From: an uncultured bacterium
Lineage (GTDB): Bacteria; Omnitrophota; Omnitrophia; Omnitrophales; Aquincolibacteriaceae
Length of the DNA: 64,000 nt
Assembly (NCBI GenBank): GCA_964373045.1
Contig: CAYJSI010000003.1
Location: 9,030 to 73,029, forward strand
Reading direction: 5' to 3'
Part shown: positions 3,001 to 64,000 of the stretch, one piece after another
How positions within the stretch are numbered: the first letter of the stretch is position 1
How the letters are laid out: the number at the start of each line of letters is the position of its first letter
The notes under the pieces: generated by a model
The model's input: the letters and a program-made list of their open reading frames with translations, nothing else
Databases searched by the model: none
What the model was told of the DNA's origin: nothing
Position numbers and translations under genes: made by a program

Positions 3001-6000
3001 TGCGAAGTGGCCGGTGGGAAGCTCGCAGACCATTACGTGGACAACCTACGGTAAAGTTCCTCTTGTTGATGTTTACTACTCGGCAAACGGAACCTTCTCG
3101 GACCAGGTGAAAATTAATTCGAGTGCTGTGGCGAATAATCAGGGAACGAATGCTACGGGAGCGACAACGAACCTTCCGTGGACACCTCCCGTGACGCTGG
3201 CGTTAACCTCGACTTATAAGATTCGAGTTGTGGATACCGGAAATAATACTACGCCTGATGCTCCGACCTTTGTCTTAGACAGCAGTTATTCTACCAATCG
3301 GGATTCCGGAGCATTTAAGATTCACGGCGTCATTGATAATGTGGTCCTGACTTCGCCCACCGGTACCACGAAACACAAGTCCTCCGATGCGGCCACCGTG
3401 ACCTGGGATACCACAGGCGACAACCTGAATAGTGTGGATATTGAATACCGGGATGTGACGGGCGCTTACCTTGCGGGCGCTTGGCAGCCGATTCAACTTG
3501 TCCATACCAATACGGGTGTCAATCGCGGAACCAAGAGCTGGACTATCCCGGAAACTTTCCGATCGAGTAATGTTGAAATCCGAGTCAAGCCTGCGGATGG
3601 GACGACAGATGGTTACGATTCAAGCGTTGCCTTGAAGGTCATGCCGAAGATCACTGTGACAACGCCCGTTGCCGCAGAACCTCTCAGTATTGGTACGGCT
3701 TATGATATTAAATGGGATATTCGCGGTGTGACTTCGTCCATCGGTATCCGTTATAAAACAGACGGCAATGCGACCACGAATAATTATCCGTCAGGCGACC
3801 CTTATGAAATTAAAACCGCCGGAGCGCCCTTGGTGCTGGACGGGACAAACTACACCAAAACCGGTACGAATGCGAAATTTCAATGGATCGATGCCGGAAC
3901 AGGCGGCGTGGCCGATACGCCTACGGCTCTTGCTCGTATGATGGTTTACGATCCTCTTGATGACCCTGCTTCGGGCGGTGACGTGTACGGTGTTTCCGCT
4001 AACAACGCCGGTAATTTTGAAATCCGCGGTTTCATCAATGCGAATAACTTCTCCTATTTAGGCGTAACTTACACCGACGATGCAGAATTTGAGGTGTATG
4101 GTGCCACTTTGAATCCAAATCCTGCTGTCATTAATTGGAATGGCGGAGGTACGATTCCGGATGCCATTATCGAATTTTCGACTACGTATGATGGAAGCGA
4201 CCCGACCTCCTTTAATGCAGGTAGAAAATGTCTTGATGGTACGACCGCCAGTCCCTGCCCGACGGTTCCGAACTGGAGCGGTTCAAGTGGCACCAAAACA
4301 TATGACTGGCACGTCCCGGATGTGATTTCCCGCAATACAAGCCCCTACTACATTCGTATCAAGGATCCCAATAACGCCAACGTTTTCGATATCTTCCCGC
4401 GTGGAGCAAGTAACGGTTTCAAAATTAAGTCCAAGCTTGATATAACTTCGCCCGATGGCGGGAACGAATTGCTCGTGGGAAATAAATCTTACAATATTAA
4501 CTGGACCAATACCGGAACAGTCCCGACGGTGGCGCTCGAGTATTCAGGGGACAATTGGCGGCATGAAGATACCAATAACAACAACATCATGGACCCGGGT
4601 GAAGATACCGATCTGGATGGATTCTTAGATCGAGTTCTTTGCGTGGCCGGTGGGACTTATCCAAACTGCAACGCCATTGCCAATGATGGTTCCTTTAATG
4701 GATTCGGCGCCGAAGGGTCCACGAACGGCCCTTGGAAGATTGCAGACGACGGCAAACTGATTCCTTGGAATTGCAACACGCTGCCTGATAACGATCCTAC
4801 TGATGCGAATCATCCTTGCAAAGTTCAAACCGCGAAGGTTCGCGTGCGTGATGGTGGAGATTTGCCGGTGATGAATGCCTCGGCAAGTAATTTTACGGCT
4901 CGTTATGTGGCTAAGAAATGGTATCTCAGAAACTCGGTGACCGGTGCCGATTTAGACAGTATTACGATGTATGAAAACACCATCCATAAAGTGCGGGCCA
5001 ATGGAAGTTTTGCAACACCCGGTATTGTTTCGCCCTATATTATTTGGAGTCCTGCCGGAACCAATTATACGATCGCCTTCTCCAAAGTTGGATTTACCGA
5101 TTATTATGATGCGGCTCAAACGACCACTTTGACGGATCAGGTGACCGGAGCCACGGTTGATCCCATTGAGCCTAATCACGCCATGTTAGATGAACGCCAA
5201 ACGGTTTACTTGAGTGATATCGTGGCCCATAACGACGTGATCAACACGTCTTATCAATATACGACTTCTTCCGGGTCTACCCCTGACAGCATTACCTTTA
5301 AGGTCTGGTACACTCGCGATGGTTTGAACGTGGTCACGACCACCCAAGCTCAACTTCTGGTTTACAATGGAGAGACGCTGCTTTCCAATATGAATTTAAC
5401 CTCCGCCACCCAAAATCCTGCGGGATCCGGCGTTTATACCTTTACCATTAGCAACACAGGTCTTCAAAAGAGTACGAACTACGATGCACGCAATAAGATT
5501 CGATTACCGACGGGAACCGATCTTCAGGGTTTCACGGTTGTGAATATCGGCCAGGCCTCTGATACGCAGACGACTAATGCCAATGTTGCGGTTATCACGC
5601 CCATTATTACCACCAATATTGATGGCAAAATTTCCGATGTCAAAAACGCAATCAGCGATGTCAAAAATGCGCTCGGTGTGACAGGAACCGATACCATTGT
5701 TAGTAAACTCAATAGTGTCCAGCAGGCCATTGAAAACAAAATCGGAACCGATTCTCAAGGTAGAACCTTGATGAAAAAGATGGATGACCAAACTGAAACT
5801 ATTAACACTGCAATCACCGACTTCACTAAAAAATCCGACAAAGCTGTCTTTAAGATGCAAGATGCTATTGCAAGATCTGCGGTTCGGCTGATTATTCCTC
5901 AGACTACCAAGGTTGGAACTAAAGAGACTATCCGTGTAGGGACCGAAGCAAGCGTGACCCCGACCATTGATATCATTTGCCCTAACGGAACGGCGATTGT

Positions 6001-49757: not shown

Positions 49758-50485
49758 ACGGAAAATACTTCAAACTCATTTTCCGCTCGAAGCCTCTTTC
49801 CCGCAAGGTCGAGCCCGGCCAGTTCATGAATGTTCAGTTGAAAGACTCACTCGATCCTTTTTTAAGGCGGCCCTTCAGTTATTACCGTGTTCTGAGGAGT
49901 CAAATCGAAATTCTTTATGAAGTTCTGGGCCACGGCACAAGTATTCTCGCGGGTTTAAAAAAAGGAGACCCCTTAAAAGTTTTAGGACCTTTGGGAAAGC
50001 CTTTTGCCAAAAAAATTCCTAAAGGAAAAAAAAGGGTGCTTGTGGCCGGGGGGGTGGGGGTCCCGCCGCTTGTTTTTTTAGCTGAACGTATTCCGGCCGA
50101 TTACCTTCTGATCGGCACGAAATCCAAACAGGAAGTCCTTCCCAAAAAGGAGCTCTCAAAGGCCAAAGCCGAGATTCTTTACTCCACCAACGATGGCTCT
50201 TACGGAACCAAAGGTTTTGTCACGGCTTTGCTCGAAAAGATCATTAAAGAAAACGGCGCCGGGAATCTTTTCATTCAAACCTGCGGGCCGGATATCATGA
50301 TGCAGGCCGTGATCAAGATTGCGCGCCGTGAGGGGATTGACGGCGAGGCCTCGCTCGATGAAACCATGGCCTGCGGTGTCGGCGCTTGCCTGGGGTGCAT
50401 GGTGAAGACCCAAGATCGCGGCTGGGTGCCCTCCTGCACCGAAGGACCTGTGTTTTCGTTTGGTGAGTTAGACAATAGTCCATAG
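49715..50485 (+). CDS. pyrK: Dihydroorotate dehydrogenase electron-transfer subunit
   Basis: FAD-binding RRPFSY. 2Fe-2S cysteines [11 protein letters not shown]...C at the C-terminus. 43-nt overlap with carB. Its last codons and TAG stop (50483-50485) lie inside a heptamer-repeat array. Confidence 0.85.
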
Positions 50486-50499
50486 ACCATAGTCGATAG
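50477..50499 (+). repeat. Left heptamer array (GTCCATAG-ACCATAG-TCGATAG) bounding the inserted four-helix-bundle element
   Basis: agtccatagaccatagtcgatag. Same heptamer family as the right array 50870-50898 and as the two 117-nt repeats in the giant 3' ORF. Confidence 0.7.
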
Positions 50500-50513
50500 A
50501 AAAGGGCGAAAGC

Positions 50514-50865
50514 ATGGCTTTCAAATTTGAAAATTTAGAAGTTTGGAAAAAGGCTTTAGAGTTGAGCTTTCAAGTGCATCAACTGACTAGGACATTTCCA
50601 AAAGAAGAATTGTATGTATTGAGTTCACAAATCCAACGAGCAGCAGATTCTGCAGTATTGAATATCGCAGAAGGAAGTACAACGCAAAGCAATTCTGAGT
50701 TTAAGCAGTTTCTGAGGTATGCATTGCGTTCCACGGTTGAAGTGGTTGCCTGCCTTTATCTGGGGAAAAAGAAGAAACCTTATCGAACAAGTAGATTTTG
50801 ATCGTCTTTATGTTCAGGCAGAAGAAGTTGCCAAGATGATTCAAGGGTTGCGTAAATCTCTTTAG
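50514..50865 (+). pseudogene. Four-helix-bundle protein gene (TIGR02436 / 23S-rRNA-intervening-sequence-protein family) with a +1 frameshift in an A-run
   Basis: Frame 0 gives MAFKFENLEVWKKALELSFQVHQLTRTFPKEELYVLSSQIQRAADSAVLNIAEGSTTQSNSEFKQFLRYALRSTVEVVACLYLGKKKKPYRTSRF*. After ggggaaaaagaagaaa (~50763-50778) the +1 frame continues NLIEQVDFDRLYVQAEEVAKMIQGLRKSL*, which is the expected family C-terminus. Extra A in the homopolymer, or a sequencing error. Confidence 0.75.
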
Positions 50866-50869
50866 TTTG

Positions 50870-50898
50870 CTATGGACTATGGTCTATCGACTATGGAC
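50870..50898 (+). repeat. Right heptamer array (CTATGGA-CTATGGT-CTATCGA-CTATGGAC), inverted relative to the left array
   Basis: ctatggactatggtctatcgactatggac, immediately before the pyrD ATG (50904). Confidence 0.7.
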
Positions 50899-50903
50899 TC
50901 AAC

Positions 50904-51848
50904 ATGAAAACGGATCTCACGACCACGATCAAGAACCTGACATTTCGAAATCCGATGACGGTGGCCTCGGGGACCTTTGGAACAAAAGGTGAGTTCGAAA
51001 AAGTGGTGAATTATGGGAAATTAGGCGCCATCATCACAAAAACGATTACCGTCAAGCCGCGCGCTGGAAACCCCATGCCCCGTATTTGTGAAACCGCGGG
51101 CGGGATGCTCAATGCCATCGGCCTGCAAAATAAAGGCCTCGATGATTTTATCGAAAACAAAATCCCTTACTTTGCTAAAATCGATACGCCTTTGATCGTG
51201 AACATTGCCGGAGAAACGCTCAAAGATTTTAGAACGCTCACAAAAGCTCTCGATCGAGAAAAGCCGGTCGTAAAAGCGCTTGAGCTGAATCTCTCCTGCC
51301 CGAATGTGGAAAGCGGCGGTGTGAATTCCATGAAAAAGCGGGAGCGCATTCTGGATGTGATCAACACGGTTAAATCCGAAACGGATTTAACCGTGTTTGC
51401 CAAGCTTTCGCCGGAACTTGGAGACGTGGTTGAAATCGCAGGGGATGTCATCAAAGCCGGAGCCGACGGCCTTAGTTTGATCAATACCCTGAAAGGAATT
51501 GCCATTGATGTTCATAAGCGAGTTCCCCGGATTTCGAATATCACAGGAGGATTGAGCGGCCCTGCCATCAAACCCGTGGCGCTTCGTTACGTTTACGAAG
51601 TGAAAAAACATCACAAAGTGCCGGTGATTGCTTCCGGCGGGATCATGAATGCTCAGGATGCAGTCGAATTTCTCATTGCAGGAGCCGATCTCCTTGCGAT
51701 CGGGACTGCCAATTTCGTCAATCCACGCGCAACCCTCGATATTCTGGAGGGGATTCAGGATTATTGCAAAGAAAAGAAGATTTGCGTGATCGACGAGCTT
51801 CGCGGCACACTCAACGTGTCGCACGGTTTCCATGAAGGAGTGATTTAA
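50904..51848 (+). CDS. pyrD: Dihydroorotate dehydrogenase catalytic subunit (class 1B)
   Basis: FRNPMTVASGTFG, NLSCPN, GGI..AQDAVEFLIAGA motifs. Confidence 0.9.
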   Translation: MKTDLTTTIKNLTFRNPMTVASGTFGTKGEFEKVVNYGKLGAIITKTITVKPRAGNPMPRICETAGGMLNAIGLQNKGLDDFIENKIPYFAKIDTPLIVNIAGETLKDFRTLTKALDREKPVVKALELNLSCPNVESGGVNSMKKRERILDVINTVKSETDLTVFAKLSPELGDVVEIAGDVIKAGADGLSLINTLKGIAIDVHKRVPRISNITGGLSGPAIKPVALRYVYEVKKHHKVPVIASGGIMNAQDAVEFLIAGADLLAIGTANFVNPRATLDILEGIQDYCKEKKICVIDELRGTLNVSHGFHEGVI

Positions 51849-52609
51849 TGACAAAGGTGCCAGAATCTCATTCTCAGAACCCGTCACCTGTCACCCGTGA
51901 CCCGAAACCTCAGTCTAAACTAATCGTTGCACTCGATACGGCAAGTCTTGAAGTTGCGAAAGAACTCATCGAGAAATTGAAGGGCGTCGTTTCTTTTTAT
52001 AAAATTGGTTTTGAACTTTTTACCGCACACGGCTGGAAGGCCGTGGAACTTGTGAAGCGCTCGGGCGCCCGCGTTTTTCTCGACCTCAAATTCCATGATA
52101 TTCCGAATACCGTGGCCAAAACGGCGTCTGTGATTGCCGCTCACGAGATTGACATGTTCAATGTGCATGCCCTCGGAGGCTTTGAGATGATGGAAGCGGC
52201 ACGCAAAGCGGTGGACGATGCCGTGAAGGGGAAAAAGAAAAAGCCCATTCTTTTAGCGGTAACGGTTCTTACAAGTCACAGCGAGGAAGATCTTGAAGCG
52301 ATGGGCATTGAAGGCAATCTCAAGGACGAAGTGCTGACCCTCGCCTGGCTTGCTAAAAAAGCCGGAATGGACGGCGTCGTCAGCTCTCCCCAGGAGATCA
52401 CGCTCCTACGCAATGAATTCCCGAAAGACTTCACGATTGTGACGCCTGGGATTCGCCCTGCTTACACCGCAAAAGGGGATCAAAAACGCACCTTCGGACC
52501 CAAAGAGGCCTTTGTCGCCGGGGCCGATTTTATTGTCGTGGGCCGCCCCATTACAGCCGCTCCGGACCCCCGCAGCGAGGCCATAGCGATCCAAAGCACA
52601 CTGAAGTAG
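51848..52609 (+). CDS. pyrF: Orotidine-5'-phosphate decarboxylase
   Basis: LIVALD...FYKIGFELF...VFLDLKFHDIPNTV motifs. Overlaps the pyrD stop. Confidence 0.9.
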   Translation: MTKVPESHSQNPSPVTRDPKPQSKLIVALDTASLEVAKELIEKLKGVVSFYKIGFELFTAHGWKAVELVKRSGARVFLDLKFHDIPNTVAKTASVIAAHEIDMFNVHALGGFEMMEAARKAVDDAVKGKKKKPILLAVTVLTSHSEEDLEAMGIEGNLKDEVLTLAWLAKKAGMDGVVSSPQEITLLRNEFPKDFTIVTPGIRPAYTAKGDQKRTFGPKEAFVAGADFIVVGRPITAAPDPRSEAIAIQSTLK

Positions 52610-52626
52610 GCCCGCGGGGAAGACAA

Positions 52627-52663
52627 CGGGGCCAGGTGGGGGCCAGGCCCCCCCCTGGCCCCG
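52627..52663 (+). terminator. GC-rich hairpin downstream of pyrF (possible terminator or processing site; no U-tract)
   Basis: cggggccagg-[tgggggccaggcccccc]-cctggccccg. 10-bp perfect stem with a structured loop. Confidence 0.35.
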
Positions 52664-52780
52664 ATGGCCTCGAGAGGTTTAATTTTGCTAGTTTGAATTA
52701 GTGATTACTCCAAAAAGGAATCGCTTGATCCAAATTACCCGTTCCCCTTTTTTATTCCTCGTTTTTTTAGGCCCGTTTCC

Positions 52781-52809
52781 TTGAAAAAGTGCAGATTGAA
52801 TGCTACACT
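52781..52809 (+). promoter_or_regulatory. Candidate sigma70 promoter TTGAAA-17-TACACT upstream of the giant 3' ORF
   Basis: TTGAAA 52781-52786, 17-nt spacer, TACACT 52804-52809. ~100 nt upstream of ATG 52908. Confidence 0.35.
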
Positions 52810-52907
52810 TTTTTCGATTTTACCATTCCACTAAAATTTCATTTCGTTAAAGGAAGCGCCGAACAAGGGGGATTGTGTTAGCCTATCTTAAGCCGATTAA
52901 AAAAGAG

Positions 52908-55900
52908 ATGAAAAAACAAATAAAATCCCTCACGGCCTCCCTCACCGTCCTCTGTTTTCTCGTCACTCAAATCGCCTCGGGCGCACCCTTCCTCTTCGCC
53001 TCACCCTATCGTGCCGAAATGGCTGCACAAAGGGAATTGATTCCTTTTCCCACCTTTGGGCTCAGCGTCCCTTCCGATCTGGGCGTGATCGATTATCTTC
53101 ATCGGGGTTCCGGCCCGGTTCTTCTGCATATTCAAACCGCCCACGGCCACTACGACGCTCAGAAAAAAATCGAAGCCCTACTTTACTATCTCAAGAAGGC
53201 CTACGGCATTCAGGATCTTTTCATCGAAGGGACGGCGGTCAAAATCCAGCCGGAACTTCTGCGTTTTTTCCCTGATGACAAGGAGCTCAATCGTGAAGTT
53301 CTTGACGGGCTCACGCGCCGGGCCTTTGTGAAGGGCTCTGAACTTTTTGCCGTGGACGAACCCGAAGCAAATCTCTATGGCATTGAGGAGCTCAAGTCCT
53401 ATCGCGTCAACAAATCCTCCTTTCGAGAGGTGCTCCGCGAGCAGGAGAAAACTGAGCGCTGGGTCAAAGAAATGGAAATGCAGATGGAGCGGCTCACCGG
53501 GCCTTATTTGAATAAGGAACTTCGAGCTTTTCTTAAGCGGATTGAGGACCACGAGGCCAATCGAATCGGCATGATGGACTGGCTCTCGATTCTAAAAGAA
53601 GAGGCCGAGAAACGCCTTGAGATCCGTCTGGCCGACCCCGCCTTTCAGCTTGACTGGCCTATGTTGGTGCGGGTCTTTAAACTCCGCGAACTCGATTCAA
53701 AATTGGATCCTCAGATTTACCCGAAAGAACGGGCCGAATTCCTTCGCTCGATCCGCCGTTTTCTCCCGGGCGCCCTCGCCCTTGAAATTCAAAAGGAGCT
53801 CATGCTCCCCCCCTCCGCTCAATCCCTTTCAGACCCTGGGACGAGTGAGCTCTTCCTTAAAATGGTGGAGCACCTTCCGCCGGGATTCCGTTATGACGCC
53901 TTTCCTCAGGTGAAATATTTCATCGGTCATTTAATTTTACAAAGTGAGCTCAAGGCCGAACGGCTTGTGAAGGAAGTGGAACAGGTTCAAGAGAAGATCC
54001 AAGCCAAGCTCGCCAAAACCCGTGAAGAAAAAGAACTCCTAGTACTTCTTCATGAGAAAAAACTTCTCACACGGCTTCTTCACCTTGAATTGACGCCGGG
54101 GGATTATGAAAAAATACGGGTCCCAGGTGCCGGGTCTCAGGTGCCAGGCTCTGTTCTTTCTGACACCCGACACCCGACACCCGTTACCCGTCACCTTCGT
54201 CCATCTTCCGTCGTTTCCCGTTTCCTTGCCGTGAACCGCGATCAGCGCGTTCGCAACGTCTCCTTCCGCCACTTAGAAGAAATCGACCGGCTTTACGAAA
54301 AGGCGCTTGAGTTTTACCGAGGCGCCAAAGAGCGTGATCAGTTCATGATAGACAATATCCTTCGGCTTATTCGGGATGAAAAGATTTCAAAAGCGGTTGT
54401 GATCACCGGAGGTTTCCACACCAAACCCTTCCAGGATTTTTTCACGAAAGAAAATTACCACTACGCCTCCATTTCTCCCAAGATTACCGAGATCGAACCC
54501 CGCGATGCCTATCTCCACGCCATTCTCCAGGATTCACCACTCACCAAGGCCTCCACACTTGAGGTGGACTCCATCGCAGTTCCAAAGGAGCAGCTTGTTC
54601 TTCACGGCACAAACTTTGAAATAGTGAATGGCATCGTGATGGGGGAACTCGAAACAGCGGCACGCAAAAAAGGAAAATGGAATGATTCAACCATTCAGGC
54701 TTTTGATCAAAGTGCTTATGCCAGGATAAACGGCGTACGGCTCAACCAAAATCTTTCTTTAGTTCCTCAAGCCCTTTCCCGGGCTGAGGTACGGAATATT
54801 GAGACAGAAGCAATTGAAGATGTTCAAGATTTTTATCAACTTCATTTTTTGGCTATGTTTTACGGCCATGAGTTTATACACCCTCAAGGGGATTCTCCGA
54901 GTCCGGCGAGTCTTGAAGATCAGGTTGACGCGTATAACTTTTGGATTACGCATTTTGAGCAGCGTAATTTATTCAACGGCACTCTTGCCGAAACCACTGC
55001 GGGGAGCAGAATAAGCGAAGAGCAATTTAATGCCCTCAAGGAATTTCTCCTGCGGACTTATCCTCGTCAAGGTAGTTTTCCTTCGTTGATTCACCGGTAT
55101 CTTATCGGTTTGGGTCAAAATCGTCTGGAGGAGGTGCTTGCGTTCATTGGCCAGGCAACGGTTCTGGAACAGCCCGAGGGTCGTCCCGGATTTTGGCGTG
55201 TCAATGGCGACTTAAAAAGTCAGAATAAAGCCATTGTTATTTGGGATGAAGGTACATCCATTCATTTCCGTGTGTTTTCGAGAGGGTCAGAACGCGAGAG
55301 TGATCAGGAATTTTTCTTTATTAATCCCGCTCATTTAGATGCTATTCGCAATGCGATAGAAGCAGCTTCTAGAGGAACCGTCCGAATTCCCCGCTCTGAG
55401 GTGAGGAAATTGGGCGAGGAGCAGGAGACGAGGCGGCCGATCAACCTGAGGGATGGCGGCGGTTTATATAGTACTGATAAATGGCTGCAATCCCGATCAT
55501 TACAGAGATTATGGTCATTGCTCCTAAGACTTCAGCCATGGTTTAACGCCCTCCTTTGGGGGGATAAAGAACCCACGCGACAACAAATCCGAGCGGTGGT
55601 TAATGCGAGCGCCGGCGGGAAAGATAATCCAGTAAGAGAATCCCGCCCATTATGGCCATCACAAAAAGAGCTGCACCATACAGCATCCAAATGGGGTGCA
55701 TCTCATCCTCCTTTTTTTGAATTCTTACGGTTAGCATTCAAACGAATAAATAAAAATAATCAGCCCACCCAGCATACAGCAACCGCCGAAAAAAATACTA
55801 GCATTAAATCCATCTCCTCTCAACAAGGGAATTACCAGCCCCGCCAAAATGACGGTATAAGTACTGACGCAAATTTTGACCAAATTTTCTCGGCGCTTGG

Positions 55901-58900
55901 CCGTCAATCTCAGCATCTCTTTTCCCTCATTAAAACCTTAAGTAAGCGTATTCTGAATTTTGTTATAAGTCAATTATTATTTTTAGTTAAATCAAATTTT
56001 AATTTACTGTCTTCGGGAGTGTGGGGGATGAGGACCCCCTTCCTTACCCCCGGCCTCTTACTCCCGGCCCCTGTTTCTTCTCGCTTGGATGCGCGGCGAA
56101 GTGAAGTGCGAACGGAAATTTTGGGGGTTCGGGCTTTAAGTTCGTTGGACCGTAGTGATATTGAGGCAGGACGTAAGGGCGGCGAGATCTTTTTTCTCAG
56201 CCAGCTTCCTCGTCAACAGAGGCCGACGGATCAACAACTCATCAATCAAATCATCTGGGGGTGGCCCGCCTTCCGGGAAAACATTCTTCCTGAAATTCAT
56301 GAGAGGTTTTTAGAGCTCAATCGGTTATTGTGGTCTAACAGAAGTGTCCTTGCAAAGGATCCCGAGTTCCGAGCGTTTCTTGGATATTTTGCGGAGCGCC
56401 TGGCAAGAAGGAATTTTCTCCAAACCCCCCTTGAAGAAATATCCGGTCGAACCGAAAAGCAAGTTCTCAGAGCTTATCATCAATTCGTAACCATCAAAGA
56501 TCGCATCCTTTCGCGCTCAGAAATGCGAACCTCGAGGCAGCTTCAAGGAGAAATTGATTATTTTTTCAGAATGAAGGAAGAAGCCCGGTCTCGTGCGGAT
56601 TTGATGGAACGCATGCTGAGTGAAATTAAAATTATCCTCGAGGGAGGACGCGGGTTAAAACAGGCAGGGCGAACTCAAGAAGCGCTGGATGTCTTAGAAA
56701 TTCTTCGCAGCTACGCCGATAGACTTACGAAGTTTGCCGAAAAAATTGGGCCTGAGAAAAAATACTTTCCTCGTGGAGTCTCTCGGGAAGAGTTGCAAAA
56801 ATGGCGCGCTGAAGAGGAAGCGAGGGACGGGAATATTTTACCCGAAGCAAGCGCCGCCGATTTAAAAGCCCGATCCGCAGATCTCAAAAAACGAATCGAT
56901 GCCTTTCTTCCTCAATTCATAGAGGCCTACCGCCCGGATAATGAGCGGAAACTCGACCGTTTGAATCATCAGGTTCTGGCCCTTCATAAAGCCCGAATCA
57001 AAGTCCAGCTCTTGCAGGCCCGTCATTACCTTTTGAAATCCTCTCCCAACGAAGGAGTTCTCTCTAACCTTTTGAATTCGCTCAGGTCAAGCTACATGCG
57101 GCTGCAACAGGAATATTGGTGGCGCTGGAAGCGCTCAGTCCGTAGCGCTGAGATTCAACAAGTTGCCGTTGTCGGTCACGAAGGCCGTACTGTTCGAACC
57201 TATGATTATTCCCAATTTAAGCTGAGGGTGAAGACTGCAAAAGATGCAGACGAGGATTCCGAAAATGTTTTAATCCAAAATCGGTGGAAATTAATCGTGC
57301 AACCCGATGGTTCAAAAGTGCATCAACTCGTTCCGACCGAAATTCATTTTTCAAGTTTAGATACAACGCTTCGGGCTTCCTTGAATACGCTCATCAGCCA
57401 GGAAGAAGATTACGGACAGGTCTTGTTTAGAGTGACGGCACTTGAATACGTTGTTGAGATCCTCAAAGAAGCCGTCAAGAACGGGACAGAACGTATTTCG
57501 AATTTCCAACAGGAAATTATCAATGCGAATTTAAGAGATGTTTTAGAAGGAAAAGGCGGACTTCGTGCCGGGATCACACCGCAAAAGGAAAATGCAACGG
57601 CCAAAGTCGAGGAAGCGATTGTGCATATGAAGGCCGGAAAATTTTCCAAGGCTAGTGAAGTGCTTGAAGACGCGATCAAAAGACTTCGGAGCCGATTAAC
57701 CGATATCGAGGGGAAAAATAAGGGGATACGCCATATCACGGATTATGTTGCCCATGAACTTCGAAAAGAAGAAACCGGCAGGGCGATTCGGGAAGTTAAA
57801 ACATTAGTGGCCCAGAATGATTTTCCATCAGCCTCAGAACTTTTAACGCAGCTCTACCAAGCCAATTATCGACCGATCGCCTCAAGGCACGGACAATATG
57901 AGTCTCTTAAGCGCGAAGTTTTAGCGCTCAAAATCAATATTACTCAATTGCAACGCTTTCACGGAAAACCATCGGAAGTAGACTTAAGAAAATCCATTTT
58001 CGAAAACATTCGCCGCATTTCAAATATGACGGGTGTTCGTTCCGAGCTGCGGCGGCAGACCAAGCACAGAGCAAAGAGCATGCCTGCCCGCCGAAGCGAA
58101 GCTGCAGGCGGGGAGCGTAGAGTTAACCTTATGCCCTCTGCCAGCCCTCTGCCCGTTTCCCGCTCCAAGTCGCGTGAACGCTCAGAGGTAAGAGTCACTT
58201 CGCCTGATTTTGAGGCCAAAGCGAAGCGTCATGCTGCTGAGTATGCAGTCATGACTACGCACAGATCCTCGGACGATGAAAGTTTTCTCCCCGATTGGCT
58301 GAAGAAACTAGGGGATGTTTTTTTGGTTCGAGATCGAATGCCGCGAAGAGAAGATAAGCAATTAGCAGCGGAGAGGATTAACAGAGTACCGCGTCTATCA
58401 TCCTCCGGTAAGTTCCTCGATCTCCGTAAACCCGCATCGGATTATCTGGATGAGATAGCTTCCCGTCTTTTATTCGGGGATAACACGCCTCCTCAAACCC
58501 GCGAAGGATGGCAGGGCTTGATTTTGGACGTTGCCGCTCCAACGCTCGTCCGTCAAACGGCTTTTGCGGCGTTCGAAAAAGCAAATCCCGATTTATTTCC
58601 TCCGTCCGTGCGCATTGAAATATCGGTCCGGGATATCAATAAAGTTCCAGCCGACGGCATGATTGTGGAAACCGATTCTCATCTTCTCGGAACCCCGGGA
58701 ATGTTCCTTCGCTCGCTCGAGCTTTCTCCGGAAGGCGATGTTCCGAACATTTCCGACTGGCGCGATCAATCTAAGAATCATGAACCGGGATCAGTTGTGA
58801 TTTCTCCGTCTTTAGCTCAAGCGAAGGAGAAAACCATTGCCGGATGGAAATATGCGCTTGGCGCCATTGTGCGTTCCACGGATGAACAGCCTCTTGATGA

Positions 58901-61900
58901 AAAGATTTATAAAGCCGCGCTCAGAAAAGCACTGGAACAAGCCGACCGTTTAGGATTGGAAACCGTCACGCTGAATCATCCCGCAGCTTTGACTTGGGCC
59001 ACTACCGTGATCCGGCAATTTTCAAAGCAAAAGCGTCTTCATTTAAAATCTGTAAACATTGTTTTTTTTACGGAAAAAGATTACAACACCTCCCTTCAAT
59101 TCACTTCCCGTTCCGAGGCGAGAGAAAGGCAGTCGATAGTCGATAGTCGACGGTCCATAGCAAACCCAGTAGTTAATCCATGGGCTATAGACTCTCTTCT
59201 ATTGACTAACCCCCGCTCCGAGCTGCGACGGCCTGAGAAAAACGAAGGCCGCGCAGCCGTCCCGCGTTCAGAAGCGCGGGGCGAGGTGCGGAAGAAGAAT
59301 CAAATCAATTTTGATTTGGAACGTGAGAAGCGGAAAATACAAGAAACAAAAGAACAGTTCGGCTCGACTTTACCTTGGATGGATAAGCAGAATTTTATTC
59401 TGGATTTCTTGGTCCGGGATGCGCTTCCTATTTTTGGAAATGTTTTTCAAGGTGGCCGCCGCGCGGCACTAAGGAGAATTAACGAGGGAAGCAAAAATAA
59501 AGCAGACACGTCTCCCGTTACGAACTACGACCCTTTAATTGAAGGAAAATTTCGGGATGCGGTTGATGGGGCCTTCCCTGGTCACGGTGTCTTGGGGGAA
59601 GAACTTGCTGATCGGAACAGGCTTCGTCCTCAAACGTTTACGTCAGATCCGATTGATGGAACAGTGGACTGGAAAATACTAGGTTCGCACTTTGGAAACC
59701 TGAGCGGATATTACGACAGCATTCATACCAACGGTGAGCCGCAAGTTGCAGTCGGGTATTGGCCTCTTCTGGATATGGATGGTTCGGGCTCCATGCTTTT
59801 TGTCGGCCGCGAAGACCAAGATGGAATTCTTGTTAATGGAAAGAGAGTTGAGCGTGCCGCGATCGAAGCCATCAATCAAAGCCGCACGGTCATTATTGGA
59901 GGCAGAAGCAAGCCCAAGACGCGGCAGCTTTTAAAAGAATATTTTGAAAAACGAGGCATGATGGTGAAATTTACAAGCGCCGGCGGAGGAGAGTCCGCTG
60001 AGATGATGCTTCGTGGCACGGCACGGTTTTATATCCATCTCAATCCCGCGGCAGTCGATGCGCCTATCGGCACTTTTTTTGCTAAAAAACTTGGATTGAA
60101 AGCCACAGATCGCGAAGGCAATCCCGTAAAGGTTCCTTTTAACTATCTTCAAAATGGACTCTATTTTCACCCTTATATCATCGGATCAAACGAATCGCAC
60201 CAGGAAGCGCTAGAAGCCTTTGCCGCCATCGGAGAACCGGAAGAAGACGTCCAATGGACCCCCCTTGAAAGAAAAGCGGCTCCGGCTGATTTGATTGATC
60301 ATTTAACCCAGGAGTCGGCTCAAAGAGCGCGCCGGCTGCTTCCTCAGGATCCGGGAGTTTCCAAGAAAAAAGAAATTAAAAAGCGAGAGCTCAAACAACT
60401 TTTAGAAAGAACGGTAGCTCTAGTCGCCGAGACCGCCAGCTTGGACATGGAACGGCTGCTGAACAGTCTCATTGAAGGAGTCACGTTCAAAAAAGTTATT
60501 CCCCAGGTGGTTAAACGGGCGGTCAGCGCGTACTCCAAGAAAAAAGCGTTAGGGCAGTCGGTGATTGTTGCTCAGGCCGGAACTCCGGGAGCAGGGAAAT
60601 CCGTTGGTGGAAAATATTTAGCCGAAGCCATTGCTCGGGCCATTCAAAAGAAGTTTCCTAAAGAAAAAGTCATCGTTCCTGTTTTGAAAGAAGATAACAT
60701 TGCTTTGATCCAAAGAAATCTTCGCGGCAAAGGCTTGGCCGGAAAATTTAAATGGGCTGAACGTGACCTTGCTCTTGCGGATCTTGTCAGCGGCCAATCG
60801 GTACTTAAAGGCATCTTTGATGATACGAGCGGCGGAAACGTCCTTCTTTCTCTTGACCCGGAAGGCAATGTGGTCATTCATAACGGCAATCGGACCGTGA
60901 CCATTCGGCATAAAGCCGGCAGCGAGGTTTTTTCTTACGACGAAGTTTTGAGTCGTCCAAACGAACCTCCATTGAATCTAACAGAGGAGCAAAAACGCAA
61001 TCATATCAACATTCAGGATAGCGGAATTTTTGAGTGCGGTTCCACAAAAGTACGCATTCGAATCGAAGGAAAAGGTACAAGTGCACGGCTTATTGTTGGT
61101 TTTCAAAGTTTAGAAATCGTATCGCTCAATGAATACGGTGAACTGGAAATGCTGACACAGCTAACCGATCATGAGATTGAACCGGTTACCGGAGGCAGGG
61201 CAACCGTAAAGGCGCGCTCTCCTTTAGGAGATCTCCCTTCCTATTTAAATGAAGCGTCGGTTTTTCAGATCGAAACCGTTCAGAATCCTCAAAAAGTCGA
61301 GGACCTCCGTAAAGCTAAAGAAGCCAGAGAATTTGTCCCTTCCGGTACACCCCTTGTCTTTGACGGCCAGTTTGCATTTTTAAGGCTTAATGAAAAAGGT
61401 GGTTTTTCTCCGGATGTTCATCTCTATGACGTTACGCTGAATTATCGGGCGAATCGAATGACGCGCTGGGCAAGAGATCTTAAGCGAAGTCGTGAGCGCG
61501 GAAGAACAACGGCAGAAGCCAATGAAAACGCTCAACGGTTTTACGAAAGAGCTTTTACGGAAGAAGAACGCTCGAATCGGGCCAACGCGGAATTCGGGAT
61601 TCAGGTCAATACGACAGACCTTGCCGAATCTCTTGAACGTTTGATCCTCTATCATTTTGAACAGCAGTCCGCCTACAGTGAAATCTGGGCTCAGATGGGC
61701 ATTGATCCCAAAACCATTGATGAAGAGCAGCGCCGGGAAAATGATCTTCCCGAAACTTTGAAACTGTTGGCTCTCTGGAAAAATTTGAAATTCAAGCGAA
61801 CATTAAACGGAACCATCGACGAGTATGAAATCGGAGATTTTATCATCCGCGTAGAGAGGAGCGCTCCGTCACTTTCTAAAATCCATCGGGGACAAAATCA

Positions 61901-64000
61901 AAAACTTAAAGAGCGCGGTAATGAAGTGATTGCAAGTAACTCACTGATCGATGTGCGGCAAGCGGGAAAAATTTTGGGAAAACCCATTCGTTTTACGGGC
62001 ATCAAGGGTGGTCAGCTGGGATGGATTTCCGTATGGAACAGAGGCGAGCTTTTGGGAGACCGGCTCAACAAATTAGCAGCTCAGGGAGATGCTGAAAGTC
62101 TGAATGAGGGAATAAAATGGATTGATCATTTTGTTGATCAGGAAGCAGCGCTTCACAAGCGCGGAATTGTGGATGAAGATCCGGATATGATGGAACAGCG
62201 CCGGCTTTTACCGATTCGCGGAGAAGTGAGCGTGGCTGTGGCAAGTCCCGAATCCAACCTTCGGATGGGCGGGGAAGCCCTTCGGCTTTATCGCGAGAAG
62301 TATCTTCCTGCCGCGGATCAAACTAATATCTATCTGCGTCAGGAAAAGTTGGATAAAATTCCCGCAGTATTTCGTGACTATTATAAGAAACGTGTTTCGA
62401 AGAAGTTGCTTCCGCATTCTGTCTCGGATGAAACTTCTCGAAATGAAGCATGGGAAGCTTTTTTCAAGGATGTTTTTGAAACAGCGCTTCCAAATTCCCT
62501 TCGAACTGTACAAAAAGATCTGCCCGCCGTCTTACAAACCGTTTCAAAACGAAAAGATGTCATGCGGGAACACAAAATTCCGCTTCGTAATTGGGGAGTA
62601 GAACACCCCGCCATTTACCACAAGCGGATTGAACATATGCGCGGGTATGTCACTCGCTATTTCATTCGAAGCGCCAAACGACAATATTTCCCCGCCATTC
62701 AAAGCAAATCGGCGACTCCCCAGCTTTTGTGGGTTGCCTTGATGCGCCAAACTTATCCGGATAAATATGCGGATTTTTATCAAATGATCCGGGTTTTAGC
62801 AGATGAAATGTTAGACAAACCCTTTCTCTTAGACGCGACCCGCTACCCAGCTTACAAACAGAATGCGGCGGTGCGCAGCCTTATTAGCGAAAAACTTGCC
62901 GAACCTTACCGTCAGGCGGGAATTGAACCTCCGCCGATTGACGCTGCCGCATGGGCATCCTTTGATTATTTTCTGAATCAAACACGGTCTCTTGCCGCCC
63001 GCTCAGAAGTGCGGAATGCGACATGGATTCCAAGTCCCGATGGCGAAGGACCTGGCCATGTGGTATCAGGCTCAGTTCCTGAGTCGGGGGGAGTGCGCAC
63101 TCCCGGCGAAGATGCCGTTCCTGCTCCTTCGCACGAAACGCAATTATGGCCGGAAGAAAGAAAATCTAAATCCGGACCCGGACACCCTGTGTCTGTTGCA
63201 CCTCTCATTCCAAGTCCTAAAGGACCCTTGGATACCGGTGGCGGCATTGTCTCCAAAGAAGATCTCTCCTCTTCCCGGGCTGAGGTAAGAGACGAGGCGA
63301 GAGAAAGGCAGTCGATAGTCGATAGTCGACGGTCCATGGAAAACCCAGTAGTTAATCCATGGGCTATAGACTCTCTTCTATTGACTAACCCCCGCTCCGA
63401 GCTGCGACGGAATGCCCGCTCGGCAGGGATGACACGCAGAAATTTCCTGATAGGGAGTGGGGCTACGCTTGCACTCACGGGGTTTGCGGCCCCGCAGTCT
63501 GTAGTGAAGTTCGCAGCGGCCAGTTCGCCGCCCAACCAGAAAAAATCTGCAGAGACGGATCAAGAAATCGAAAAGAAATTCATCGAGTGGCGCAAGGCCG
63601 CAGAAAAAGCCTTTCTCGAAAGATTTCCCTTGGATGAAAAAATCGAGAAAAAACAAATGCTGACTGATGACGAAAAGAAACAGTATCTGGAGCTCAGAAA
63701 GAAAACCCGTGAACTCAGTCTCCTGATGATGTACGCCTCCTACCGTCTCCAGGAAAGAGAAGATAAACGGCTTGAAAATAGAATCCTGGAGGATCTGACG
63801 AATTCTCTCGATTTAAAATCAAAGAACAAGCAAAAGCGGTATTACACGGCTGCCACTCTCGAGCAACTGGGGTATTTTTATCACAGTATAAAATTGCGGG
63901 ATTTTCTCATCCGTGTCGCTCAGGATACCAAGCTGGATGCCCTCTATCGTGATAGAGCTGTCGATGGGCTCGCTCTCATGATCGCGACTTATTGGAACAC
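52908..64000 (+). CDS. Giant modular secreted protein, 5' portion (more than 3,697 codons; continues beyond the window). Segments: Sec signal; TraB/GumN/Tiki-like module; low-complexity linkers; macro-like domain; inositol-monophosphatase-fold domain; P-loop kinase-like domain; internal Tat-type signal peptide.
   Basis: Every codon in the frame (positions congruent to 0 mod 3) from 52851 to 64000 was checked by hand and none is TAA, TAG or TGA. The nearest upstream stop is TAA 52848-52850. First ATG is 52908. N-terminus MKKQIKSLTASLTVLCFLVTQIASGA. Motifs seen: LLHIQTAHG / VITGGFHTKPF (TraB-like), VRDINKVPADGMIVETDSHLLGTPG..LGLETVTLNHPAALTWA (macro-like), GVLGEELADRN + DPIDGT (IMPase fold), VIVAQAGTPGAGKS (Walker A). 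Not in the supplied track, presumably because it has no in-window stop. Confidence 0.8.
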   Translation, partial: MKKQIKSLTASLTVLCFLVTQIASGAPFLFASPYRAEMAAQRELIPFPTFGLSVPSDLGVIDYLHRGSGPVLLHIQTAHGHYDAQKKIEALLYYLKKAYGIQDLFIEGTAVKIQPELLRFFPDDKELNREVLDGLTRRAFVKGSELFAVDEPEANLYGIEELKSYRVNKSSFREVLREQEKTERWVKEMEMQMERLTGPYLNKELRAFLKRIEDHEANRIGMMDWLSILKEEAEKRLEIRLADPAFQLDWPMLVRVFKLRELDSKLDPQIYPKERAEFLRSIRRFLPGALALEIQKELMLPPSAQSLSDPGTSELFLKMVEHLPPGFRYDAFPQVKYFIGHLILQSELKAERLVKEVEQVQEKIQAKLAKTREEKELLVLLHEKKLLTRLLHLELTPGDYEKIRVPGAGSQVPGSVLSDTRHPTPVTRHLRPSSVVSRFLAVNRDQRVRNVSFRHLEEIDRLYEKALEFYRGAKERDQFMIDNILRLIRDEKISKAVVITGGFHTKPFQDFFTKENYHYASISPKITEIEPRDAYLHAILQDSPLTKASTLEVDSIAVPKEQLVLHGTNFEIVNGIVMGELETAARKKGKWNDSTIQAFDQSAYARINGVRLNQNLSLVPQALSRAEVRNIETEAIEDVQDFYQLHFLAMFYGHEFIHPQGDSPSPASLEDQVDAYNFWITHFEQRNLFNGTLAETTAGSRISEEQFNALKEFLLRTYPRQGSFPSLIHRYLIGLGQNRLEEVLAFIGQATVLEQPEGRPGFWRVNGDLKSQNKAIVIWDEGTSIHFRVFSRGSERESDQEFFFINPAHLDAIRNAIEAASRGTVRIPRSEVRKLGEEQETRRPINLRDGGGLYSTDKWLQSRSLQRLWSLLLRLQPWFNALLWGDKEPTRQQIRAVVNASAGGKDNPVRESRPLWPSQKELHHTASKWGASHPPFFEFLRLAFKRINKNNQPTQHTATAEKNTSIKSISSQQGNYQPRQNDGISTDANFDQIFSALGRQSQHLFSLIKTLSKRILNFVISQLLFLVKSNFNLLSSGVWGMRTPFLTPGLLLPAPVSSRLDARRSEVRTEILGVRALSSLDRSDIEAGRKGGEIFFLSQLPRQQRPTDQQLINQIIWGWPAFRENILPEIHERFLELNRLLWSNRSVLAKDPEFRAFLGYFAERLARRNFLQTPLEEISGRTEKQVLRAYHQFVTIKDRILSRSEMRTSRQLQGEIDYFFRMKEEARSRADLMERMLSEIKIILEGGRGLKQAGRTQEALDVLEILRSYADRLTKFAEKIGPEKKYFPRGVSREELQKWRAEEEARDGNILPEASAADLKARSADLKKRIDAFLPQFIEAYRPDNERKLDRLNHQVLALHKARIKVQLLQARHYLLKSSPNEGVLSNLLNSLRSSYMRLQQEYWWRWKRSVRSAEIQQVAVVGHEGRTVRTYDYSQFKLRVKTAKDADEDSENVLIQNRWKLIVQPDGSKVHQLVPTEIHFSSLDTTLRASLNTLISQEEDYGQVLFRVTALEYVVEILKEAVKNGTERISNFQQEIINANLRDVLEGKGGLRAGITPQKENATAKVEEAIVHMKAGKFSKASEVLEDAIKRLRSRLTDIEGKNKGIRHITDYVAHELRKEETGRAIREVKTLVAQNDFPSASELLTQLYQANYRPIASRHGQYESLKREVLALKINITQLQRFHGKPSEVDLRKSIFENIRRISNMTGVRSELRRQTKHRAKSMPARRSEAAGGERRVNLMPSASPLPVSRSKSRERSEVRVTSPDFEAKAKRHAAEYAVMTTHRSSDDESFLPDWLKKLGDVFLVRDRMPRREDKQLAAERINRVPRLSSSGKFLDLRKPASDYLDEIASRLLFGDNTPPQTREGWQGLILDVAAPTLVRQTAFAAFEKANPDLFPPSVRIEISVRDINKVPADGMIVETDSHLLGTPGMFLRSLELSPEGDVPNISDWRDQSKNHEPGSVVISPSLAQAKEKTIAGWKYALGAIVRSTDEQPLDEKIYKAALRKALEQADRLGLETVTLNHPAALTWATTVIRQFSKQKRLHLKSVNIVFFTEKDYNTSLQFTSRSEARERQSIVDSRRSIANPVVNPWAIDSLLLTNPRSELRRPEKNEGRAAVPRSEARGEVRKKNQINFDLEREKRKIQETKEQFGSTLPWMDKQNFILDFLVRDALPIFGNVFQGGRRAALRRINEGSKNKADTSPVTNYDPLIEGKFRDAVDGAFPGHGVLGEELADRNRLRPQTFTSDPIDGTVDWKILGSHFGNLSGYYDSIHTNGEPQVAVGYWPLLDMDGSGSMLFVGREDQDGILVNGKRVERAAIEAINQSRTVIIGGRSKPKTRQLLKEYFEKRGMMVKFTSAGGGESAEMMLRGTARFYIHLNPAAVDAPIGTFFAKKLGLKATDREGNPVKVPFNYLQNGLYFHPYIIGSNESHQEALEAFAAIGEPEEDVQWTPLERKAAPADLIDHLTQESAQRARRLLPQDPGVSKKKEIKKRELKQLLERTVALVAETASLDMERLLNSLIEGVTFKKVIPQVVKRAVSAYSKKKALGQSVIVAQAGTPGAGKSVGGKYLAEAIARAIQKKFPKEKVIVPVLKEDNIALIQRNLRGKGLAGKFKWAERDLALADLVSGQSVLKGIFDDTSGGNVLLSLDPEGNVVIHNGNRTVTIRHKAGSEVFSYDEVLSRPNEPPLNLTEEQKRNHINIQDSGIFECGSTKVRIRIEGKGTSARLIVGFQSLEIVSLNEYGELEMLTQLTDHEIEPVTGGRATVKARSPLGDLPSYLNEASVFQIETVQNPQKVEDLRKAKEAREFVPSGTPLVFDGQFAFLRLNEKGGFSPDVHLYDVTLNYRANRMTRWARDLKRSRERGRTTAEANENAQRFYERAFTEEERSNRANAEFGIQVNTTDLAESLERLILYHFEQQSAYSEIWAQMGIDPKTIDEEQRRENDLPETLKLLALWKNLKFKRTLNGTIDEYEIGDFIIRVERSAPSLSKIHRGQNQKLKERGNEVIASNSLIDVRQAGKILGKPIRFTGIKGGQLGWISVWNRGELLGDRLNKLAAQGDAESLNEGIKWIDHFVDQEAALHKRGIVDEDPDMMEQRRLLPIRGEVSVAVASPESNLRMGGEALRLYREKYLPAADQTNIYLRQEKLDKIPAVFRDYYKKRVSKKLLPHSVSDETSRNEAWEAFFKDVFETALPNSLRTVQKDLPAVLQTVSKRKDVMREHKIPLRNWGVEHPAIYHKRIEHMRGYVTRYFIRSAKRQYFPAIQSKSATPQLLWVALMRQTYPDKYADFYQMIRVLADEMLDKPFLLDATRYPAYKQNAAVRSLISEKLAEPYRQAGIEPPPIDAAAWASFDYFLNQTRSLAARSEVRNATWIPSPDGEGPGHVVSGSVPESGGVRTPGEDAVPAPSHETQLWPEERKSKSGPGHPVSVAPLIPSPKGPLDTGGGIVSKEDLSSSRAEVRDEARERQSIVDSRRSMENPVVNPWAIDSLLLTNPRSELRRNARSAGMTRRNFLIGSGATLALTGFAAPQSVVKFAAASSPPNQKKSAETDQEIEKKFIEWRKAAEKAFLERFPLDEKIEKKQMLTDDEKKQYLELRKKTRELSLLMMYASYRLQEREDKRLENRILEDLTNSLDLKSKNKQKRYYTAATLEQLGYFYHSIKLRDFLIRVAQDTKLDALYRDRAVDGLALMIATYWN
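59115..59231 (+). repeat. 117-nt in-frame repeat element, copy 1 (encodes EARERQSIVDSRRSIANPVVNPWAIDSLLLTNPRSELRR)
   Basis: 115/117 identical to copy 2. Contains a direct heptamer array TCGATAG-TCGATAG-TCGACGG-TCCATAG and inverted CTATAGA/CTATTGA units. Flanking sequence is unrelated between copies. Confidence 0.85.
63294..63410 (+). repeat. 117-nt in-frame repeat element, copy 2
   Basis: Same as copy 1 apart from two substitutions (ccatagc to ccatgga). Ends 20 nt before the internal Tat-like signal (ATG 63430). Confidence 0.85.

Follow-up and report, generated by a model that had tools for sequence, protein, structure and literature searches.

At the right-hand end of a 64,000-nucleotide stretch of DNA from an uncultured Omnitrophota bacterium (the whole stretch is referred to here as the window) lies a giant open reading frame (ORF) that starts at position 52908 of the plus strand and is still open where the window ends. 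We show that this ORF is a chain of unrelated protein units, headed by a module that is conserved among related loci, and that a strict five-residue delimiter stands at the borders between its units. We describe the modules and their relatives, and then consider the possibility that the product is a polyprotein that is cut at these delimiters.

A giant gene at the end of the window

In-frame translation of 52851-64000 on the plus strand meets no stop across 3,716 codons, while the rival frames over the same span are closed, with stops summed over the modules of about 159 in the +1 frame and about 220 in the +2 frame and with the three minus frames similarly interrupted. At a stop frequency of 5.1% per codon, the probability of such an open frame by chance is about 1e-85. 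The nearest in-frame upstream stop is a TAA at 52848-52850, and the first ATG, at 52908, is followed by 3,697 codons (11.1 kb) to the point where the ORF runs off the window. This ATG agrees with the N-termini of homologues, which likewise read MKK and continue into a hydrophobic helix. Codon statistics, from a model trained on 27 neighbouring genes, favour this frame nearly throughout and drop to about zero only at amino acids (aa) ~800-1100 and ~3400-3500. These low stretches are still stop-free; for example, the segment designated M3 below has no stop in this frame and 8-19 in the others. We conclude that 52908-64000 is the 5' 11.1 kb of a genuine giant Omnitrophota gene. A tblastn-confirmed scan of genome_contigs with the last 698 aa of the ORF, and an exact-match search of metagenome_contigs with a 59-mer taken from the end of the window, both gave no match to its continuation. 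The original prediction had reported the same absence of stops and had presumed that the ORF was missing from a program-made ORF list because it runs off the window end without terminating inside it; both statements hold.

52908-64000, + strand: giant ORF, N-terminal 3,697 codons, defined by open frame and codon statistics

A pentapeptide delimiter divides the chain into modules

The giant ORF contains 12 copies of the pentapeptide R-[SA]-E-[VLMA]-R, against an expectation of 0.085 and a maximum of two in 5,000 shuffles. The motif does not occur in the other two plus frames of the 64-kb window, which hold nearly all of its other genes. The 12 copies are written by 11 distinct 15-mers, including AGR arginine and AGT serine codons, and codon usage this varied indicates that it is the amino acids and not the bases that are conserved in the source genome. 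The delimiters partition the chain into ten modules and two spacers derived from a 118-nt repeat, as follows.

52908-54779, + strand: M1, head, probable TIKI/TraB/erythromycin-esterase-like hydrolase fold (aa 1-624)
54780-54794, + strand: delimiter RAEVR
54795-55391, + strand: M2, 199-aa orphan module (aa 630-828), no family match
55392-55406, + strand: delimiter RSEVR
55407-56096, + strand: M3, 230-aa junk-like spacer (aa 834-1063), near-zero coding statistics
56097-56111, + strand: delimiter RSEVR
56112-56513, + strand: M4, 134-aa orphan module (aa 1069-1202)
56514-56528, + strand: delimiter RSEMR
56529-58037, + strand: M5, 503-aa helical module (aa 1208-1710), weak TPR-like matches
58038-58052, + strand: delimiter RSELR
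58053-58178, + strand: M6, 42-aa spacer (aa 1716-1757)
58092-58106, + strand: degenerate delimiter RSEAA, within spacer M6
58179-58193, + strand: delimiter RSEVR
58194-59108, + strand: M7, 305-aa orphan module (aa 1763-2067), its C-terminal part (58779-59099) weakly macro-like
59109-59123, + strand: delimiter RSEAR
59114-59231, + strand: 118-nt repeat copy 1, in frame, related to inverted repeats at 50470-50899
aa 2073-2124, + strand: repeat-derived spacer, translated 118-nt repeat
59214-59228, + strand: delimiter RSELR, within 118-nt repeat copy 1
59265-59279, + strand: delimiter RSEAR
59280-62999, + strand: M8, 1,240-aa conserved module (aa 2125-3364), IMPase and kinase-like P-loop
63000-63014, + strand: delimiter RSEVR, beginning one residue past the end of M8 homology
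63015-63275, + strand: M9, 87-aa Pro/Ser/Gly-rich low-complexity spacer (aa 3370-3456)
63276-63290, + strand: delimiter RAEVR
63293-63410, + strand: 118-nt repeat copy 2, in frame, 98% identical to copy 1
aa 3462-3500, + strand: second repeat-derived spacer, translated 118-nt repeat
63393-63407, + strand: delimiter RSELR, within 118-nt repeat copy 2
63408-64000, + strand: M10, from aa 3501, cut by the window end, Tat-like signal near its start

Delimiters among related loci

The N-terminal 624 aa that constitute M1 have homologues in eight proteins at 39-51% identity, the named one being from Candidatus Omnitrophica. A profile scan of species-representative genomes yielded 28 further head loci, and all sources that carry a taxon name are Omnitrophota metagenome-assembled genomes, the rest being labelled 'uncultured bacterium'. 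Several genomes hold two to four head paralogues. In the 31 related loci examined the head always forms the N-terminus of an open frame, whose length ranges from 504 to more than 3,969 aa; in 17 cases the frame runs off its contig.

The delimiter is present in 20 of the 31 head-led ORFs, with 96 copies in 59,007 aa (1.63 per 1,000 aa), against a density of 0.19 per 1,000 aa in the remaining open frames of 150 aa or more, where it occurs mostly in ORFs that directly adjoin a head ORF. Alignment of 94 motif contexts reveals no conservation of the flanks, an enrichment of Met straight after the motif (7 of 94 cases) and an enrichment of Ser and Ala among the residues that precede it. Signal-like starts are not significantly enriched after delimiters (5.3% versus 4.2%). 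Individual genomes prefer individual flavours of the motif, with RAEVR accounting for six of six copies in locus L004 and RSEAR for eight of 11 in L005 and five of five in L031. A general role as a Shine-Dalgarno site was considered and rejected, as GAA is used in 56 of the 96 copies and a Met follows so few of them.

Several additional observations concern the architecture of these relatives. In L003 (228-4393) two genes with an ATGA stop/start overlap encode the head (616 aa) and a tail that has five copies of RAEVR; therefore, the link between head and tail also exists as an operon and not just as a fusion. In L005 the distal delimiter copies diverge stepwise, as if modules were newly added beside the head. 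The C-termini of giant ORFs end in [AS]A-COOH in 13 of the 16 examined (for example ...FLTAA, ...RISA and ...DIAA; L001, L005, L015, L018, L021, L026, P0009-P0011, P0016-P0018 and P0023), their last 200 residues being non-homologous, and in L005 and P0010 just five to seven residues that end in [AS]A follow the final delimiter. P0016 additionally carries a 17-aa tandem, RKELRTAQNSHAELPSS, in five copies at aa ~5076-5160.

Delimiters coincide with unit edges and homology breakpoints

In the relatives, Pfam recognizes complete enzymes that lie between delimiters. In L005 a triosephosphate isomerase (TIM; Pfam E 3e-75) is enclosed with gaps of 7 and 4 aa, and in L029 a hexokinase is enclosed with gaps of 14 and 8 aa; L029 also carries an adenylate kinase, a glutamate dehydrogenase and a response regulator that begins 8 aa past a motif. 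In L004 the native start of CsrA, MLVLSRK, follows RAEVR directly with no gap. Overall, Pfam identifies TIM, hexokinase, glutamate dehydrogenase, adenylate kinase, CsrA, response regulator and methyltransferase among the cargo of the relatives.

The conserved module M8 provides a second line of evidence. An exhaustive search recovered full-length homologues of ~1,170-1,200 aa at 44-51% identity, located at differing positions within proteins of 5,827, 7,620 and 7,416 aa. In the window, M8 homology ends at aa 3364 and the delimiter begins at aa 3365, a C-edge gap of 0 aa. P0010 and P0011, the latter of which has a distant M1-like head, lack RSEVR and instead contain 17-18 copies of [AG]ARL[AS]; in both, copies of this motif stand 7 and 3 aa from the two edges of the M8-like unit. 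In P0016, whose M1 head is clear, [RHK]xELR occurs 19 times, and there it is the IMPase sub-module alone that is bracketed, with gaps of 6 and 3 aa. Over 13 units the median distance from edge to delimiter is 12 aa, compared with 198 aa for random placement (0 of 5,000 permutations reach the observed value), and no delimiter falls inside any of the 13. The original prediction did not recognize this combination of domains, a view that has not survived, as the IMPase, kinase-like and C-terminal regions together form a conserved module of other giant proteins.

Homology also breaks at delimiters. L006 and L020 share 60% identity as far as the final residue of a delimiter, past which they are unrelated, and one delimiter-bounded module is adjacent to the head in L013 and two modules further along in L022. 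Tails are hypervariable, with three tail-to-tail similarities among 29 tails, and the window modules beyond aa 600 have no match in any of the 31 related loci. At the level of sequence comparison, these results show that units are joined by a short motif that is under peptide-level selection and that module exchange respects the junctions. They also show that the flavour of the delimiter differs between lineages at homologous junctions, with [AG]ARL[AS] and [RHK]xELR used as alternatives.

The head module

The following features were recognized within M1.

52908-53003, + strand: N-terminal signal-peptide-like segment, MKKQIK and a hydrophobic helix (aa 8-32), kept in homologues
53127-53147, + strand: motif HIQTAHG
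53220-53231, + strand: motif FIEG
54408-54419, + strand: motif GGFH

The N-terminal helix is the sole strongly hydrophobic stretch in 3,697 aa and, together with its retention in homologues, it supports the Sec signal that the original prediction had placed here. H79, E107, G108, E160, R476, G501, G502 and H504 do not vary among 29 head sequences, and 28 of these also have H74, as 28 have D477. A structure model of the head, of low confidence (predicted local distance difference test score, pLDDT, 55), superposes best on the superfamily that comprises TIKI, TraB, PrgY, GumN, erythromycin esterase and ChaN. The GTxH / E / GxxH pattern of this superfamily is echoed by the head motifs ...TAHG, ...EG and ...GGFH, whose His and Glu residues are invariant. 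The head differs from known members in having no significant sequence-profile match and in a ~330-aa helical insertion that separates the N- and C-terminal halves of its core; a Pfam scan at E <= 10 gave a single match, to DUF5694 (E 0.052), over the GGFH region. Active TIKI-superfamily enzymes have a site of two His and two Glu residues and some are sequence-specific endopeptidases (PMC6254334). A TIKI/TraB/erythromycin-esterase-like assignment of the head is tentatively supported at the level of the modelled fold, and the invariant His and Glu residues are candidates for a catalytic set. The earlier call of a TraB/GumN/Tiki-like module is retained at this strength and fails as a match to the Pfam TraB family.

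Three head homologues (L014, L024, where it lies before GGFH, and P0001) carry in-frame insertions, specific to their lineages and 25-50 aa long, that resemble translated repeat elements, such as '...SNLGHSNFEFVSDFGFRVS...' and 'GRSNP...SPRND'. Their sequences suggest that these genomes tolerate repeat insertions within coding sequence.

Cargo modules of the window

The IMPase/CysQ-like domain of M8 (59439-60191, aa 2178-2428) scores 39.6 bits with PF00459 against a cut-off of 27, contains the DPIDGT metal-site motif at 59646-59663 (aa 2247-2252), and also matches HisN/CysQ NCBIfam models and IMPases in the PDB. These matches make the IMPase assignment firm on sequence grounds, just as the original prediction had it from the DPIDGT signature. 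The second domain that it had named in this region, a Walker-A kinase-like one, is retained as a motif, GTPGAGKS at 60579-60602 (aa 2558-2565), with weak matches to kinase families; these comprise the NCBIfam nucleoside/nucleotide-kinase model PRK09270 (E 1.3e-4, below the family cut-off) and uridine-cytidine kinase (E 0.007 with a five-sequence profile), while Pfam offers Torsin or AAA_18 alone at E >= 0.03. The remaining C-terminal region of M8, ~600 aa, is conserved.

The proposed divergent macro domain in M7 is in a similar position. Residues 196-302 of this module match the NCBIfam macro-type hydrolase NF001662 (E 2.5e-5, 24 bits versus a cut-off of 215) and, weakly, AF1521 in the PDB (E 0.035), but no Pfam macro match occurs in the giant ORF. 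The single-sequence structure model of the region is unusable (pLDDT 44), and M7 has no homologues in the word-indexed protein database. The same is true of M10 in that database. M10 begins with a Tat-like signal, MTRRNFLIGSGATLALTGFAAP (63429-63494), located 8 residues past the delimiter, in which a TRRNFL twin-arginine motif precedes a mildly hydrophobic stretch; the matches to TAT_signal (E 0.097) and formate_TAT (E 0.061) are both below cut-off.

M3 (55407-56096) and M9 (63015-63275) are delimiter-bounded and have the codon statistics of non-coding DNA, yet they are stop-free. They may be decayed modules or captured filler. Taken together, every module named in the original prediction has at least some support, in agreement with its description of the ORF as modular and enzyme-like. 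The cargo seen in the window (macro-like, IMPase with nucleoside-kinase-like, and several orphans) looks, from its sequence, metabolic or function-orphan and not toxin-like.

Surroundings of the giant ORF

Upstream of the giant ORF is a pyrimidine operon composed of pyrR, pyrB, pyrC, carA, carB, pyrK, pyrD and pyrF. A GC-rich near-perfect palindrome (52619-52671; 26-nt arms, 85% complementary) begins 10 nt past the pyrF stop and lacks the run of T that intrinsic terminators typically have. An AT-rich spacer of ~240 nt separates it from the giant ORF. The spacer contains one promoter-like site.

52781-52809, + strand: promoter-like site TTGAAA-17 nt-TG-TACACT, a consensus match only, ~100 nt upstream of the start

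Between pyrK and pyrD lies a gene (50514-50801) for a 23S-rRNA-intervening-sequence protein (IVP), a four-helix-bundle protein (PF05635 E 7e-28), that is flanked by 34-nt inverted repeats composed of ATAGTC[CG]ATAG[AT]C units. This region (50470-50899) looks like a small inserted cassette, and the reading frame may be broken near its 3' end. The left arm of the 118-nt repeat in the giant ORF matches the inverted repeats around the IVP gene, and each copy of that repeat is enclosed by delimiters. Within the window the repeat unit is confined to these places (seven matches versus 0.11 expected). The idea that the 118-nt repeat is a structured RNA was dropped, as it folds no better than shuffled sequences (z -1.3). 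An Rfam scan of 50000-64000 gave no match.

A second giant ORF, of which the window holds the 3' end (2-7417, more than 2,471 aa), is unrelated to the ORF at 52908. It encodes a surface-type protein, repetitive and rich in Thr, Ser and Asn, whose C-terminal part has a coiled region and a single transmembrane anchor; the delimiter motif is absent from it.

A possible cellular polyprotein

As a whole, these results are in our view best explained by a product of the giant gene that is a cellular polyprotein, cut at the delimiters and with the head as candidate protease, an explanation that we hold with about even confidence. The comparisons above establish the borders, and from these we infer the cutting. 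One chain would be translated from ATG 52908, and a lineage-specific endopeptidase would then cut it at the delimiters. Separate proteins would be freed in this way, and the junk spacers M3, M6 and M9 as well as the translated 118-nt repeats would be discarded. The destination of each freed protein would be set by the signal that it carries, which is of Sec type on the head and Tat-like on M10.

We favour this polyprotein explanation because a strict five-residue site has free flanks and is followed in places by native Met residues and a Tat-like signal, and because the cargo consists of full-length cytoplasmic-type enzymes while junk is tolerated between two sites. A cut before the first Arg would fit the enrichment of Ser and Ala ahead of the motif as well as the [AS]A C-termini, while a cut after the last Arg would fit those cases in which Met follows the motif. 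More speculatively, the head itself, with its invariant His/Glu/His set, could be the processing peptidase. It is the obvious candidate because it is the sole universally conserved part, because its fold family includes site-specific peptidases and because its His and Glu residues are invariant; by analogy to these peptidases, a role for the head as processing protease is put forward as speculation. A wider proposition is that the giant genes of this subfamily encode true polyproteins, each lineage having a 'punctuation code' of its own (RSEVR in this one and AARLA or RxELR in others) that the head or a co-evolving peptidase would read to free ordinary enzymes, exported proteins and disposable spacers, with modules gained, lost and swapped as cassettes at the delimiters. 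We regard this wider proposition as possible and decidedly tentative.

The arrangement invites comparison with the viral polyproteins of picornaviruses and potyviruses, which an encoded protease cuts at short specific sequences and which likewise consist of a long single ORF with unrelated units, a short site at each junction and a flavour of that site that varies with lineage. It differs from them in that the genome is cellular, the cargo is housekeeping, and the protease and the cleavage are putative.

A number of observations weigh against polyprotein processing by the head. Cleavage is deduced from the pattern of the sites. Pfam detects no recognizable protease domain besides the head in the scanned ORFs, and no conserved neighbour gene, such as one for a protease, accompanies the head-led ORFs. 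As for the head, a Foldseek comparison of its model with the PDB found nothing significant, a PDB sequence-profile search with the head alignment gave no match, and Pfam TraB_PrgY_gumN does not match it. Its Sec-type signal is hard to reconcile with cytoplasmic-type cargo and an internal Tat signal, unless the chain is cut in the cytoplasm during translation. The four head paralogues of HK-STAS-OMNI-5 are without the delimiter. Finally, L005 (3271-10332) contains six identical copies of CGCTCCGAGGCGCGG, all head-proximal and with unrelated flanks, and L004 (4168-8910) contains four nucleotide-identical delimiter 15-mers, again with unrelated flanks.

Alternative explanations

The product could remain an uncleaved multi-domain giant protein, such as a scaffold or coat, in which the pentapeptide serves as linker or hinge between modules or as a site of binding or modification. 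Published views hold that such proteins are membrane-associated surface or coat proteins and peptides of one giant ORF have been detected, which accords with an uncleaved chain, as do the signal peptide on the head and the failure to identify a dedicated protease in scanned ORFs or neighbours. However, a strict five-residue motif with unconstrained flanks would be unusual for a passive linker, the native N-terminal Met residues and the Tat-like signal straight after delimiters suggest separate proteins, and junk-like spacers between two delimiters fit removal better. Additionally, TIM, hexokinase, adenylate kinase and CsrA normally work as free oligomers in the cytoplasm, a poor fit to units locked in one chain. 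We consider an uncleaved protein unlikely.

The delimiter could also be mainly a nucleic-acid element, either a site of recombination and cassette capture or one of RNA processing or re-initiation, with the peptide as a by-product. The identical 15-mers of L005 and L004 point to such a DNA- or RNA-level role, be it added or alternative. Synonymous codons match at delimiters more than expected in four loci (0.54-0.75 versus ~0.28), CGN and TCN codons are over-used in the motif, some delimiters contain GAGG followed by ATG 5 nt later in the manner of a ribosome-binding site, and homology breakpoints as well as module insertions and deletions fall on delimiters. Against this, codon matching stays close to expectation (0.25-0.35) in the window and in L029, L010, L024 and L014, where AGR and AGY as well as GAA and GAG are all used, so that amino acids and not bases are conserved there; 15 nt is short for a recombinase site; Rfam has no match; and a peptide-like class of motif is kept in different lineages. 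That the peptide is a mere by-product therefore seems to us quite improbable. The codon data are suggestive of a combination, in which delimiters would be laid down or homogenised by a nucleotide-templated process, possibly at module capture, and then kept as peptides.

The original prediction had suggested a nucleotide- or ADP-ribose-directed effector or toxin-like function. In its fullest form this would be a secreted multi-effector toxin, MARTX-like or polymorphic-toxin-like, that acts against nucleotide or ADP-ribose metabolism of a host or prey and is processed in the target cell. The N-terminal signal peptide, the macro-like, phosphatase and kinase-like modules, and the predatory or parasitic life attributed to Omnitrophota are in keeping with it. 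MARTX toxins are also giant secreted proteins whose exchangeable effector modules are freed at inter-module sites by an internal protease, and the TIKI fold modelled for the head recurs in their effector RRSP and in HopBA1. Polymorphic toxins have a conserved N-terminal part and a hypervariable C-terminal part with a short conserved motif at the junction (VENN in CdiA, DPxGL in Rhs), and here, too, a conserved head precedes hypervariable tails and homology breaks at a short motif. The visible 3,697 aa contain no RTX repeats, no inositol-hexakisphosphate-activated or other cysteine protease domain and no toxin or defence families, and PADLOC gave no match. The TIKI-like domain is here the invariant N-terminal head and not cargo, the cargo is not toxin-like and consists of housekeeping enzymes in the relatives, and an internal Tat signal would serve little purpose on a chain that is already exported. 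In comparison with polymorphic toxins, there are many junctions per protein, no evident toxin/immunity pairs and an unrelated motif. The toxin proposal is not supported by the visible part of the gene, and we judge it very unlikely.

An artefact, whether a chimeric assembly, a decayed pseudogene or an operon that lost its stops to sequencing error, is scarcely credible, for although the window ends within the ORF, two segments have non-coding-like statistics and the same locus is split over several frames in L003, L020 and L028, the frame is free of stops over its 3,716 codons, over 30 independent contigs from separate studies share this architecture, the peptide motif is conserved and the M8 unit retains 44-51% identity.

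Relation to known giant genes and implications

Giant ORFs, of 10,000 to 147,000 residues, are an established hallmark of this phylum. ORFs of more than 20 kb occur in most classes of Omnitrophota (Seymour et al. 2023), proteins of up to 85,804 aa with embedded glycolytic domains have been reported, and a more recent account describes proteins of up to 147,155 aa and defines a 'multi-enzyme metabolic cluster' class (Nielsen & Lui 2026 preprint). The Archaeovorins are giant Omnitrophota proteins whose cleavage points were stated to be unknown (West-Roberts et al. 2023 preprint), and the literature is undecided as to whether the products of giant ORFs act as one chain or are cut up. The ORF described here shares with these the phylum, a signal peptide followed by a very long stop-free frame, tiled unrelated enzyme domains, glycolytic enzymes in its relatives, few annotatable domains and poor sequence conservation. 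It differs in that C39, S8, SecA and dockerin domains are absent from the visible 3,697 aa. Among its relatives, head-led ORFs extend to more than 3,969 aa and proteins to 6,474-7,416 aa; the 3,697 aa seen in the window do not assign the ORF to any of the published size classes (>20 kb, >=10,000 aa, >30,000 aa). In the window and its relatives, one polypeptide is made up of many distinct enzyme families and has no dominant repeat, as in the multi-enzyme class. The giant, signal-led multi-enzyme ORF is a new member of this described Omnitrophota class, and the high novelty originally ascribed to it as such is consequently lost. These published accounts of Omnitrophota giant ORFs do not mention a conserved TIKI-like head, pentapeptide delimiters or breakpoints that fall on delimiters, and literature searches with the motif string and with Omnitrophota plus polyprotein returned nothing relevant.

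The delimiter motif predicts exact termini that can be sought in proteomes, gives sensible boundaries at which to divide giant proteins before their structures are predicted, and serves as a search key for the protease. If the polyprotein explanation fails, the motif still defines a grammar of modules and the points at which they are shuffled in evolution. If it is true, these bacteria would make many cellular proteins from each reading frame, an organisation that has so far been associated with viruses.

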